From: an uncultured Nitrospira sp.
GTDB taxonomy: Bacteria > Nitrospirota > Nitrospiria > Nitrospirales > Nitrospiraceae
NCBI GenBank assembly: GCA_902500785.1
Contig: CABVRW010000008.1
Span: 19,095-83,094, forward strand
Reading direction: 5' to 3'
Length of the DNA: 64,000 nucleotides
Shown here: piece by piece, positions 44,749-50,812 of the stretch
How the letters are laid out: every line of letters begins with the position of its first letter
Position numbering within the stretch: position 1 is the first letter of the stretch
The notes under the pieces: model-generated
Databases searched by the model: none
What the model was told of the DNA's origin: nothing
Seen by the model: the letters and a program-made list of their open reading frames with translations, nothing else
Translations under genes and position numbers: made by a program

Positions 44749-45648
44749 GTGAACTCTACCATCCTGCGTGTTCGGACTCCTGCGAAAGTAAATCTCATCC
44801 TCCGCGTACTCGAACGGCGTCCTGACGGCTTTCACACCGTCTGGTCGCTGATGCACACGGTGGGACTCGAAGATGAGTTGACCTTCTCGATTCAGCCGAG
44901 CAACGATTCTCATATCGCCTTGCGCTGTGACCATGCCCTGCTGGGGGCGGATCAGAGCAATCTGGTGTACCGAGCGGCGCAGCTCGTGTTGGCGCGAGTC
45001 GATCGCGCCGTTGATCTGTCGATCACGCTCACCAAGCGCATTCCGCTGGGAGCCGGCTTGGGTGGTGGAAGCAGCGACGCGGCGGCGACCATTCTCGGTC
45101 TGACTCGCCTCCTGGAATTGAACTGGTCGATCGAGGAGATGGCGGAGTTGGGGCAACAACTGGGGAGTGATGTGCCGTTCTTTTTTGTGGGGCCTGCCGC
45201 TTGTGTCACCGGTCGAGGTGAAGAGGCGCGATCCGTGCGGATGACCGGAACTCGCTGGATTGTGCTGGTGAATCCCGGTTTTCCCGTCGAAACGAAATGG
45301 GCCTATCAACAACTCTCGGCAAGCAGATCATCCGTACGCCCGCTCTCCCCGGCACTGGAGCAATTGGGAAGCCGTTCGGTGCTGGATTGGTCGGAGCTCC
45401 TACCGTTAGTCGAGAACGATTTTGAAGCTCCTGTCTTTGCGCAACATCCTGTCCTGGCCGAGATCAAGGCTCAGTTGCTGGGCCAGGGGGCTGAGGCTGC
45501 CTTGTTGTCCGGCAGTGGCGCGACGATGTTCGGGGTCTTTTCTGGGCAGGTCGAGGCGGAACGAGTCGCGGCCTGGTTTGCCCGAGACCCGAAGACGAAG
45601 GTCTATGCCGTGCGGGCGGGAGGCACCTCGGTTACCAGTGTAGTCTGA
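44749..45648 (+). CDS. ispE: 4-diphosphocytidyl-2-C-methyl-D-erythritol kinase
   Basis: PAKVNLIL, KRIPLGAGLGGGSSDAA, LGSDVPFF, LSGSGAT; GTG start inferred. Confidence 0.96.
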   Translation: MNSTILRVRTPAKVNLILRVLERRPDGFHTVWSLMHTVGLEDELTFSIQPSNDSHIALRCDHALLGADQSNLVYRAAQLVLARVDRAVDLSITLTKRIPLGAGLGGGSSDAAATILGLTRLLELNWSIEEMAELGQQLGSDVPFFFVGPAACVTGRGEEARSVRMTGTRWIVLVNPGFPVETKWAYQQLSASRSSVRPLSPALEQLGSRSVLDWSELLPLVENDFEAPVFAQHPVLAEIKAQLLGQGAEAALLSGSGATMFGVFSGQVEAERVAAWFARDPKTKVYAVRAGGTSVTSVV

Positions 45649-47697: not shown

Positions 47698-48288
47698 TTG
47701 CACCTGCTCGTTGGATTGGGCAATCCTGGGGCTGAGTATGCCGACACACGGCATAATGTCGGCTGTTGGGTGATCGAGCGGGCTGCGGCGCGGTGGTCGA
47801 TACGTCTCACCAGGAAAGGCGCGGCCCAGCGAGGCTCGGGTCGCGCCGGTTCCAAACTTGTCGAGCTTGCCTGTACGCTTGACTGGATGAATCTCAGTGG
47901 TCCACCCCTCAAAGGGCTCCTTCGCGAACTCTCCCTGACCCCCGATGCGCTCGTTGTGGTACATGACGATTTAGATCTCGATCCGGGACGTTTACGGATC
48001 AGGCAAGATGGCGGAAGCGGCGGGCACAACGGCATCAAATCTATCCTTGAAGCATTGGGAACGCCGCGGTTCGTACGTCTCAAAATCGGCATCGGTCGTC
48101 CGGCGCCGAGGCAGGATACGGCCGACTACGTGTTGGAGCCTGTCTCCCCCGAGGAGATGGCGGTCTATGACCCGTGCCTCGACCGAGCAGTGGATGCGCT
48201 GGAACTCCTGCTGAACCGCGATCTCGCCACTGCGATGAATCAATTTAACGTGCGAGAGAAACCCGAGAGCGAGGAGCGACCGAGTTAG
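47698..48288 (+). CDS. pth: peptidyl-tRNA hydrolase
   Basis: VGLGNPG..Y..TRHNVG, VVHDDLD, GGHNGIKS, RLKIGIGRP; TTG start. Confidence 0.97.
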   Translation: MHLLVGLGNPGAEYADTRHNVGCWVIERAAARWSIRLTRKGAAQRGSGRAGSKLVELACTLDWMNLSGPPLKGLLRELSLTPDALVVVHDDLDLDPGRLRIRQDGGSGGHNGIKSILEALGTPRFVRLKIGIGRPAPRQDTADYVLEPVSPEEMAVYDPCLDRAVDALELLLNRDLATAMNQFNVREKPESEERPS

Positions 48289-48494
48289 CCTCACGACGAG
48301 CGTCTTGTGCGCAGAGTATCTGTGATAACTCCGAGTCGCCCGTATGAGCAAATCGGGAAACGTGATCGGCCTGGAGATCCGTGGAACACCACCTTTCGCA
48401 GGGCGTCCTGAGCGGCAAACAGCAGCGGGATTTCCAAGCACTCTGTCCGCAATACTCGGCGCGACTATGGTAGAGTGACCTATGCGCGTCTCCC

Positions 48495-49712
48495 ATGGAA
48501 GAGACCATGACGACGTCTAGCCATCCACCCCTCTCGCTTTTGCAGTTCGATAGTTCCCCTGAGCGCGGATTCCTGCCGGCGACAGACCCGATGGAGCACC
48601 TTCCCGATGAACCGATTCTGAATCAGGTCGGGACAGAGCTGCCGAAGTTCTTGACCGCCCGACAGTTTCGACATTTTATCCAGGACCATCAGGAGGTCAT
48701 GGGCCCGGTGGCGGATGACTGGGGCCTCGACACGTTTCGTTGCGTGATGCGTACCCTGTCTTTTGCCGGTCACGCCTATGTCTGGGAAGATCCCGACCAT
48801 CCTGCTTCCCGCCTGCCGTCGAGTCTGGCCTTACCCTGGTACAGTGTCGCGCAACAGCTCGGACGTCCACCGGTGCTGTCCTATGCCTCGTATGCGCTGC
48901 ACAATTGGCGTCGGCTTGATCCGCTGAAGCCCATCGAGTTAGGCAACGTCGTGCTCCTGCAGAATTTTCTCGGCGGCTTGGATGAAGAATGGTTTGTTCT
49001 GGTGCACATCGACATTGAGGCTAAGGCGGGGCCGGGCTTGGCGGGCTTGGTCCAGGCTCAGAACGCGGCCCAGGAGAAGAAGGACGAAGAAGTGCTCCAG
49101 GGCCTACGCGCGCTTGCCAGCTCGCAGGAAGCGATGCGCGACACCCTGCTCCGCATGCCGGAACGCTGTGACCCGTACATCTATTACAGTCGCGTACGGC
49201 CCTATATTCACGGCTGGAAGAACAGTCCGGCATTGCCGGAGGGGCTGATATATGAAGGGGTCGCAGACTACGCCGAACGACCGCAACAGTTGCGCGGCGA
49301 GACCGGCTCGCAAAGTTCAATTGTTCCGGTTCTAGACGCCGGCCTCGGCGTTCCCCATGCCGATGATCCGCTGACGCAGTATCTCCTAGAGATGCGGGAC
49401 TATATGCCTGCGCGCCACCGGGCGTTTGTCGTCGCGTTGGAACAGCGAGTGGATGCGCGACAGCGCCCGCTGCTGCACGGCTATGTTCGCGATCGCAAAA
49501 CGACCCATCCTGAATTGTGGAAGGCCTTCTGTGCCTGCGTGGACCTGCTCGCGCAATTCCGTGAGATTCACATCGGCTACGCCGAGCGGTATATCTTTCG
49601 ACAACATCAATCGCACGCCAGTAATCCCACTGCCGTCGGTACCGGCGGCACGCCGTTCATGCCGTATCTGAACAAGCACCTCGAAGAGACGAAGCGCTTC
49701 ATTCTGGACTAA
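48495..49712 (+). CDS. indoleamine 2,3-dioxygenase-family heme protein
   Basis: RGFLP, RPPVLSYASY..NWR, EEWFVLVH..IE, RVRPYIHGWK, RGETGSQSS, YMPARHRAF, FREIH (proximal His), GTGGT. Confidence 0.88.
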   Translation: MEETMTTSSHPPLSLLQFDSSPERGFLPATDPMEHLPDEPILNQVGTELPKFLTARQFRHFIQDHQEVMGPVADDWGLDTFRCVMRTLSFAGHAYVWEDPDHPASRLPSSLALPWYSVAQQLGRPPVLSYASYALHNWRRLDPLKPIELGNVVLLQNFLGGLDEEWFVLVHIDIEAKAGPGLAGLVQAQNAAQEKKDEEVLQGLRALASSQEAMRDTLLRMPERCDPYIYYSRVRPYIHGWKNSPALPEGLIYEGVADYAERPQQLRGETGSQSSIVPVLDAGLGVPHADDPLTQYLLEMRDYMPARHRAFVVALEQRVDARQRPLLHGYVRDRKTTHPELWKAFCACVDLLAQFREIHIGYAERYIFRQHQSHASNPTAVGTGGTPFMPYLNKHLEETKRFILD

Positions 49713-49798: not shown

Positions 49799-50011
49799 AT
49801 GCGCAAACCCGGCGAACCAATCTACCTGCGGATTCACTTCATTGCCCTGACGTTGGTGATTGTGGCTACGGTGGCGCTACCACGCGCGGTGGAGTTTTTT
49901 GTCGGTCCGTTGGGTTTCCGCACCCGGGCACTGGCAGGGTTGGGTATTGCCGTAGCCGGTGGGATTGCCTTGTATCTTCTCTACAATTCCTCCGCCCGCA
50001 ATGAGCCGTAG
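49799..50011 (+). CDS. small two-TM membrane protein (70 aa)
   Basis: Two hydrophobic stretches; fills the gap; TATAGT -10-like element just upstream. Confidence 0.6.
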   Translation: MRKPGEPIYLRIHFIALTLVIVATVALPRAVEFFVGPLGFRTRALAGLGIAVAGGIALYLLYNSSARNEP

Positions 50012-50170
50012 CGGGATGGCGGAATCATTCTCTCGATTCTCAGCCAGCGTGCGGACACCTTCAACCGTCATGCATTCGACATCCCTCGCTTAGGCGAATG
50101 GAAGTTGTCCAGTCTCCTGCGCCGATTGCCTGATATGATCAAGATATGCCTCGCCCATGGAGTAAGCACC

Positions 50171-50812
50171 ATGGTGTGGAGAAGGTTTGCGTGCAGTTGG
50201 TTGAGTGCCGGGTTGTTTTGTTGTTTGCTTCTTTTCCTCTCGCCCTCTCCATTGAAGGCCGAGTGGTATGCGGCCGCTCAGCTAGGAGCAAATTTCGCCG
50301 ATCCCATCCGGAATGTTCGAGGAAGCGGCACTCTTGCAGGTCGGGATGCCCCGAACTTCAATTTGAAAACCAGCCCAGCGTTCGGCGGCAAGCTGGGCGT
50401 CTTTCCCAACCATGGGATCTTCGGGCTTGAATTGGATGTCTCGCAGAGCACCCCGCACATCAAAAATCTCGATGATGTGCCGGGCATCCATCTTGCCGTC
50501 ACCAATATCGGCGCCAACGTGCTGTTACGGTATCCCGGGGTGACCTGGCAGCCCTATATCGGCGGTGGTCCGGCCTTGCTCGTGGCGCGACTCGGCCGTT
50601 CCTCAACGACGGAACGTGATACACAAGTCTCGGTCGGTGGGAATGTGCTGGTCGGCATCAGGGCCTTTGTGACACCTAGGGTGGCGCTCTTTACCGAATA
50701 CAAATATACCGACTCCACGTTTCGCTTCGGCGGCGCGTTTGGACCGGTGGGCGGGTTCGACGGCACCTATCGGGCACATCAACTGTTTGTCGGCCTGTCC
50801 TATCATTTCTAG
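50171..50812 (+). CDS. outer-membrane beta-barrel protein (OmpA/OmpW-like)
   Basis: Signal peptide, QPYIGGG, LFTEYKY, C-terminal VGLSYHF; start uncertain. Confidence 0.85.
   Translation: MVWRRFACSWLSAGLFCCLLLFLSPSPLKAEWYAAAQLGANFADPIRNVRGSGTLAGRDAPNFNLKTSPAFGGKLGVFPNHGIFGLELDVSQSTPHIKNLDDVPGIHLAVTNIGANVLLRYPGVTWQPYIGGGPALLVARLGRSSTTERDTQVSVGGNVLVGIRAFVTPRVALFTEYKYTDSTFRFGGAFGPVGGFDGTYRAHQLFVGLSYHF

Follow-up and report, generated by a model that had tools for sequence, protein, structure and literature searches.

An indoleamine 2,3-dioxygenase-family gene of Nitrospira and the predicted histidine-type distal pocket of its product

The gene, its leader and its predicted fold

The stretch of DNA analysed here, called the window below, comprises 64,000 nucleotides from an uncultured Nitrospira sp. 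(assembly GCA_902500785.1, contig CABVRW010000008.1, positions 19,095 to 83,094 of the forward strand), and the host genome to which it belongs is 99.6% complete. After pth (47698-48288, PF01195), the window carries on its plus strand an open reading frame (ORF, 48495-49712) that had been assigned, from the letters alone, to the family of indoleamine 2,3-dioxygenase (IDO). Both the assignment and the position after pth were borne out. The Pfam comparison that the original prediction had proposed gave a full-length match to PF01231 (IDO), with an E-value of 6.6e-83 and 279.2 bits against a gathering cut-off of 26 bits, covering profile positions 4-411 of 412, and all of the motifs it had quoted were found in the translation (RVRPYIHGW at 233-241, GETGSQSS at 268-275, FREIH at 355-359 and GTGGT at 382-386). 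No NCBIfam model matched the window IDO protein. In a sequence search of the Protein Data Bank (PDB), the closest solved relatives were human IDO2 (E 1e-56) and human IDO1 (E about 1e-39).

The features of the locus are collected in Table 1. Alignment of 16 pth-IDO spacers showed that the ATG at codon 5 of the longest ORF is kept across relatives and the ATG at 48495 is not; the 401-residue product is therefore the likely one, and 401 residues is also the length of most IDO homologues. Within the same spacer, compared over 16 loci of the Ca. N. defluvii-like lineage (lineage I), the extended −10-like element TGGTAGAGT is the sole well-conserved block. A simple sigma-70 scan did not call this element and found no −35 match, and no RNA element of Rfam was matched in the IDO leader. 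The IDO gene seems to be read from its own promoter and not as the tail of pth, as far as the conservation of the leader can tell. A second exact copy of TGGTAGAGT lies on the minus strand at 44753-44761, near the pilR/ispE junction, and two copies per window were reached in 1 of 100 shuffles.

An AlphaFold2 model of the window IDO, built from a 48-sequence alignment, had a pLDDT of 94.5 and a pTM of 0.93. Comparison of this model with solved structures by Foldseek gave a TMq of 0.87 to IDO2 and 0.85 to IDO1, with a probability of 1.00, and as modelled the protein has the two-domain, all-helical fold of the IDO family. The pLDDT dips at the GTGGT motif of the JK loop, as expected for a flexible loop. 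Neither a transmembrane (TM) segment nor a signal peptide was found in the protein (the maximum Kyte-Doolittle value over a 19-residue window was 1.17), and because no hydrophobic stretch is long enough for a membrane span or a signal peptide, the protein is predicted to be cytoplasmic.

Table 1. Features at and around the IDO gene, in window coordinates (hIDO1, human IDO1)
Feature	Position	Strand	Remarks
Extended −10-like promoter element TGGTAGAGT	48468..48476	+	about 30 nt upstream of the start codon
Putative ribosome-binding site GGAAGAG	48497..48503	+	read from sequence; GGAG-like block at the same position in relatives
IDO-family haem protein, coding sequence	48507..49712	+	likeliest start, 401 aa; longest ORF from 48495, 405 aa
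His171 codon, distal-pocket position of hIDO1 Ser167	49005..49007	+	alignment to hIDO1
Arg235 codon, equivalent to hIDO1 Arg231	49197..49199	+	invariant
Glu269-Thr270-Gly271, DE-loop residues in place of hIDO1 Gly262-Ser263-Ala264	49299..49307	+	
Arg356 codon, equivalent to hIDO1 Arg343, propionate-binding position	49560-49562	+	alignment to hIDO1
His359 codon, proximal haem ligand position (hIDO1 His346)	49569..49571	+	alignment to hIDO1
GTGGT JK-loop motif, Thr383 equivalent to hIDO1 Thr379	49638..49652	+	alignment to hIDO1
tm70, 70-aa two-TM ORF directly downstream of IDO in lineage I	49799..50011	+	two hydrophobic stretches

The active site and the clade with a distal histidine

Residues of the window IDO were mapped onto hIDO1, whose sequence agrees with the alignment returned by the PDB search. 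Retained residues (hIDO1 equivalents in brackets) are His359 (His346), Arg356 (Arg343), Arg235 (Arg231), Thr383 (Thr379), Tyr130 (Tyr126) and Phe167 (Phe163). By contrast, hIDO1 Ser167 is replaced by His171, Cys129 by Tyr133, Phe226/Phe227 by Tyr230/Tyr231, Phe164 by Val168, and Gly262-Ser263-Ala264 by Glu269-Thr270-Gly271. All of the mapped residues, retained and altered alike, are invariant in 121 Nitrospira-type homologues. In hIDO1 the amino-acid part of tryptophan is held by Arg231, the GTGG motif, Gly262 and a haem propionate, with Arg231 ion-pairing with the carboxylate and the GTGG motif, including Thr379, binding both the ammonium and the carboxylate; Ser167 reaches the indole N-H via a water molecule, and the amide of Ala264 helps build an oxyanion hole (PMC5700043). 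Read against hIDO1 in this way, the amino-acid handle is intact in the window IDO and the distal side is remodelled. Thus the original prediction was right in describing a complete, stand-alone IDO that has the proximal His, the GTGG loop and the Arg for substrate binding, but it missed the difference in the distal pocket from IDO1 and IDO2. Neither the Ser or Thr at position 167 nor the Gly262-Ser263-Ala264 DE loop that mark the animal type is present in the window IDO.

The phylogeny with eukaryotic IDO that had been called for was computed with 109 sequences. His occupies position 167 (hIDO1 numbering) in 85 of the 109, and sequences with and without it split at one branch (SH-aLRT 97), with human IDO1 and a sponge sequence on the non-His side and the window IDO across that branch from human IDO1. 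The Nitrospira IDOs form a single clade with a support of 100. A His/Glu/Tyr signature was found in 72 of 107 full-length representatives of clusters at 50%, and by these alignments the pocket signature defines a large and distinct bacterial clade, referred to below as His-type. Its labelled members come from Thermodesulfobacteriota, Armatimonadota, Ca. Binatia, Acidobacteriota, Proteobacteria (including Alphaproteobacteria) and Parcubacteria, and His-type IDOs also occur on plasmids of cultured organisms, namely Sphingobium (a Gln262 variant), Methylocystis and haloarchaea. Given that the same signature is present in many other phyla, the distal pocket is not an adaptation of Nitrospira. In nine non-Nitrospira lineages, all of which have the pocket signature, the IDO gene stands alone, with no kynurenine, tailoring or biosynthetic gene and no recurrent neighbour at the nine loci. 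The PDB search gave no solved structure of a bacterial IDO member.

Among the His-type loci are those of Parcubacteria/CPR-like genomes (L092/L093, that is P0127, and P0132), in which the IDO gene lies among murC, dprA, topA and relA. Organisms of this kind are not expected to make haem.

Conservation, gene neighbourhood and pathway context

Of the 25 genomes of the genus, 24 gave a PF01231 match, and so did 137 of the family's 201 genomes, which spread over 13 of its 33 genera. The best 80 loci in named genomes were all from Nitrospira or Nitrospiraceae, including Ca. N. defluvii, to which the host genome is close (IDO identity 84%), and N. moscoviensis. Compared with eleven relatives, the IDO gene had a dN/dS of 0.05-0.10, in the same range as pth. 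Its GC content equals that of its flanks, and the GC skew is flat over 48-51 kb and positive in the flanks. The gene had been described as inserted among housekeeping genes, a wording that suggests special or recent acquisition. Presence in nearly the whole genus, monophyly, low dN/dS and the lack of a GC anomaly do not uphold that description; judged by these sequence comparisons, the IDO gene is vertically inherited in Nitrospira and under purifying selection. Four otherwise complete Nitrospiraceae genomes (G093, G101, G113 and G213) retain only IDO remnants or a copy with an in-frame stop, so that the gene does decay now and then.

The gene order rplY-pth-IDO-tm70-OMP-lipoprotein-rpsF, in which OMP denotes a beta-barrel outer-membrane protein gene, was found only in lineage I. 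By contrast, in the N. moscoviensis-type lineage (lineage II) the IDO gene comes after metK and ahcY and lies ahead of a ferritin-like/VIT1 gene. Because neighbours differ between Nitrospira lineages, IDO has no conserved operon partner. The closest candidate in position, tm70, adjoins IDO in 24 loci of lineage I. Its dN/dS of 0.04-0.08 points to strong purifying selection, and it has neither a Pfam match nor a paralogue in the genome; it is absent from lineage-II loci, and being confined to lineage I it was rejected as a partner of IDO. Within lineage I it always keeps this place directly after IDO, even where, as in one relative, the OMP and lipoprotein genes are missing.

Some further observations were made at these loci. 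In three relatives (L010, L022 and L023) an insert of about 1.3 kb separates pth from IDO, and in a fourth (L020) the gap there is 4.4 kb; the insert in the first (L010:168-1459) holds nothing but an oppositely oriented ORF of 169 aa with a signal peptide. The N. moscoviensis locus (L083:5339-10441) reads metK, ahcY, IDO, an ORF of about 40 aa that is Cys-rich with one TM segment (also seen in L070), and the ferritin-like/VIT1 iron transporter, and cytochrome c biogenesis genes (ResB, CcsA, DsbD) lie upstream of the lineage-II IDO locus. In the window, the start of the outer-membrane ORF (50105-50812, plus strand) is ambiguous; the TTG at which it is listed puts about 20 extra residues ahead of a segment resembling a signal peptide. 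One entry titled 'uncultured Nitrosospira sp. isolate NOB2' (L017, CAADGJ010000223.1) carries a Nitrospira-type ispE-prs-rplY-pth-IDO-tm70 locus with 82% IDO identity, and is probably a mislabelled Nitrospira bin.

To place the gene among pathways, the whole host genome was searched for kynurenine enzymes and for nadA and nadB, as the original prediction had proposed. The reported absence of kynurenine and pyrrolnitrin genes from the window was confirmed, and for kynureninase, for the PF04199 cyclase/KynB and also for tryptophan 2,3-dioxygenase (TDO, PF03301) the absence extends to the whole host genome. Kynureninase was above its family cut-off in none of 41 relatives. NadA and NadB are both present in the host genome, NadB above its equivalog cut-off. 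A search of the genome for 3-hydroxyanthranilate dioxygenase (3-HAO) gave no match, and control genomes were equally without a match. Given that kynureninase is absent while NadA and NadB are present, NAD is taken to be made via NadA/NadB and a kynurenine route is rejected, and with it falls the role in NAD synthesis that had been suggested for this IDO.

A PF04199 cyclase-family gene is present in 23 of 24 genus relatives (for instance at L098:3826-4737), flanked by a RuBisCO-like (form IV/MtnW-like) gene on one side and dsbA on the other. Its 303-aa product scored 88 bits against a KynB equivalog cut-off of 223 and has a signal-peptide-like N-terminus. In the host this gene has been cleanly deleted, leaving 196 bp between its neighbours (contig C12:18648-20549), and the IDO gene is intact. 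The cyclase was therefore rejected as a KynB partner of IDO, because its score misses the equivalog cut-off, its N-terminus suggests export and the host has lost it. The co-occurring formamidase and kynureninase of a kynurenine-pathway member are thus lacking. A place in a pyrrolnitrin cluster is likewise not indicated: PF08933 (PrnB) gave no match in the window IDO at E <= 1, prnA/C/D neighbours are missing, and the only sign of a tryptophan halogenase was one marginal 18.5-bit match elsewhere in the genome.

Predicted function and comparison with known systems

The reading that we prefer, and hold to be moderately probable, is that the gene encodes a cytoplasmic, His-ligated haem oxygenase that acts on L-tryptophan or a near analogue, opening or oxidising the indole ring with O2 without a downstream pathway. 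The product, of about 45 kDa, would be a haem b oxygenase that is soluble in the cytoplasm and belongs to the His-type bacterial clade. Binding of haem b and conversion of L-tryptophan and O2 into N-formylkynurenine would be the family-level expectation. In such a reaction the ferrous-O2 haem would attack L-tryptophan, or an indole amino acid closely related to it, at the C2=C3 bond, with His171 predicted to hydrogen-bond the indole N-H directly, like the distal His of TDO. The N-formylkynurenine formed would end at kynurenine and formate, if it is deformylated at all. The role would then be an accessory one, in the removal or turnover of tryptophan or of indole-amino-acid species, and not in energy metabolism or NAD supply.

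Several points weigh against this reading. An autotroph that must synthesise its tryptophan has no obvious gain from destroying it, and some relatives have lost the IDO gene or keep only remnants. The distal pocket is markedly more polar than that of IDO1 or IDO2. Our literature search found no biochemical assay for any member of the His-type clade and no relevant paper on a Nitrospira IDO; neither indoleamine nor kynurenine is named in the supplements of the N. moscoviensis model paper, and the N. marina proteome lists a 'kynurenine formamidase' and no IDO label. Three main IDO branches have been described, each with eukaryotes and bacteria (PMC4217691). In this account, which cites Yuasa et al. 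2011 and 2012, efficient tryptophan dioxygenases are placed only in the branch of mammals, fungi, Gemmatimonas aurantiaca and Streptomyces scabiei, and for the two remaining branches the proteins assayed, fungal IDO-gamma, Erythrobacter litoralis and Neptuniibacter caesariensis, are given as very slow (PMC4217691). A search with a Sphingobium IDO as query showed no Erythrobacter label among its best matches. In our tree the Nitrospira IDO clade is separate from the animal branch, and it may, by its placement, belong to a slow branch, in which case tryptophan might not be its true substrate.

The main alternative is a haem enzyme of the IDO fold whose reaction is other than tryptophan 2,3-dioxygenation, which we regard as possible though clearly less than likely. 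Such an enzyme might monooxygenate or peroxygenate a different indole or aromatic amino acid, or carry out ring chemistry on it, with substituted, oxidised or nitrated tryptophan as examples, and the polar His/Tyr/Glu pocket would tune the chemistry. In keeping with this, the distal pocket is unlike that of IDO1 and IDO2 at seven positions, all of them invariant in the clade, and the downstream kynurenine enzymes are absent; however, a distal His is also used by the true tryptophan dioxygenases of the TDO family. The invariance of Arg235, Thr383 with the GTGG motif, Tyr130 and Phe167 argues that the substrate should remain a tryptophan-like alpha-amino acid, and no tailoring or biosynthetic genes lie nearby in the sampled lineages. 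From the biochemical side, IDOs assayed outside the animal, fungal and Gemmatimonas branch are very poor tryptophan dioxygenases (PMC4217691). In the superfamily of haem-dependent aromatic oxygenases, monooxygenase and rearrangement reactions also occur, and a monooxygenase activity is seen in IDO itself (PMC12921851). We judge doubtful a further proposal, in which the His-type clade is a distinct haem oxygenase or sensor with another substrate or ligand and is near-core for some purpose in the lifestyle of Nitrospira; such a purpose could be, for example, getting rid of tryptophan that has been nitrosated or nitrated, or a chemistry of N-oxides or O2.

The host had been presumed to be a nitrite oxidiser, and NxrA, with a twin-arginine translocation (TAT) signal and in two copies, substantiates this. 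Such a host raises the possibility that the IDO is a haem protein for gases or N-oxides, taken into service by a nitrite oxidiser to store or sense O2, to dioxygenate NO or to reduce nitrite. The original prediction had raised this by analogy with IDO-like myoglobins and with the nitrite reduction reported for IDO1. A distal His with Tyr would resemble the distal pockets of globins, and the gene looks constitutive and stands alone without pathway partners. However, NxrA was found in 150 of 201 genomes and 25 of 33 genera of the family, well beyond the 13 genera with IDO, and at least 10 NxrA-positive genomes lack IDO (G168, G041, G045, G046, G052, G053, G057, G059, G062 and G064). Because NxrA-positive relatives do without it, IDO is dispensable for nitrite oxidation, and a core role in nitrite or NO handling is unlikely. 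Moreover, the recurrence of the same signature in Armatimonadota, Binatia, Acidobacteriota, Thermodesulfobacteriota, Alphaproteobacteria, Parcubacteria and haloarchaea argues against a nitrite adaptation, a pure gas binder would not need the invariant amino-acid-binding Arg and GTGG loop, and the predicted cytoplasmic IDO and the TAT-exported NxrA would lie in different places. We consider this explanation improbable.

A place for the IDO at the head of tryptophan catabolism, or of a kynurenine route that leads to NAD, is suggested by the family name and by the PF04199 cyclase-family protein of the relatives, and is very improbable in view of the kynureninase and NadA/NadB results and of a cyclase that scores far below its cut-off, appears exported and has been lost in the host with the IDO intact. 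Least probable of all is a recently acquired island gene or decaying passenger, for which the flat GC skew, the differing position between lineages and the remnants in a few relatives could be cited, but which is contradicted by a GC content equal to the flanks, a monophyletic Nitrospira clade, near-universal presence in the main genera, the low dN/dS and the conserved promoter element.

The window IDO is thus ordinary for its genus, being neither part of an island nor of NAD synthesis, and it belongs to a clade that is known but poorly characterised. In soils, fresh water and wastewater plants the main nitrite oxidisers are Nitrospira, whose accessory metabolism has been only partly mapped; a near-universal and strongly conserved haem oxygenase that does not appear in the Nitrospira metabolic model searched represents a small gap in that map. 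The gene is useful as a pointer to a little-studied bacterial IDO clade that spans many phyla and some archaea, and Nitrospira species, Methylocystis and Sphingobium are tractable sources for its first characterisation.

Among systems of known structure, human IDO2 (9uyy/9uz1) and IDO1 (5wmu/2d0t) have the same two-domain fold, and the window IDO is 33% and 27% identical to them, respectively. The proximal His, the carboxylate-binding Arg, the GTGG JK loop and the equivalents of Tyr126 and Phe163 are common to both human proteins and the window IDO. By contrast, the distal Ser167 of IDO1 (Thr in IDO2-like sequences) is His in the window IDO, which is bacterial, lies on the opposite side of the main split of the tree from human IDO1 and occurs without a kynurenine pathway. 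TDO (KynA, PF03301) also opens the tryptophan ring in a haem-dependent manner, but it belongs to a different fold family from the window IDO, which has no PF03301 match. The distal His of TDO contacts the indole N-H. PrnB (PF08933) belongs to the same superfamily of His-ligated haem aromatic oxygenases, and a faint precomputed PF08933 match exists in some His-type members, unlike in the window IDO.

Bacterial IDOs surveyed by Yuasa, Ushigoe and Ball in 2011 are, as summarised in PMC4191572 and PMC4217691, sporadic and exclusive with TDO, many of them unlinked to kynU and with very low tryptophan turnover. Bacterial IDO and TDO are held to be mutually exclusive, and ancestral IDOs have been proposed to be broad indole oxidisers (PMC4191572). 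The fold can also serve without dioxygenase activity, as in the IDO-like myoglobin of gastropods, an O2-storage protein mentioned in the same paper (PMC4191572). The nearest parallel to the distal pocket is the S167H mutant of hIDO1 (PDB 6cxu/6cxv), which places His at the same distal position; a literature search on this mutant found nothing, and 6cxu was the best IDO1 match in the PDB search. However, S167H is an engineered single change in an IDO1-type pocket, to which the natural clade adds Tyr133, Tyr230/231 and Glu269.

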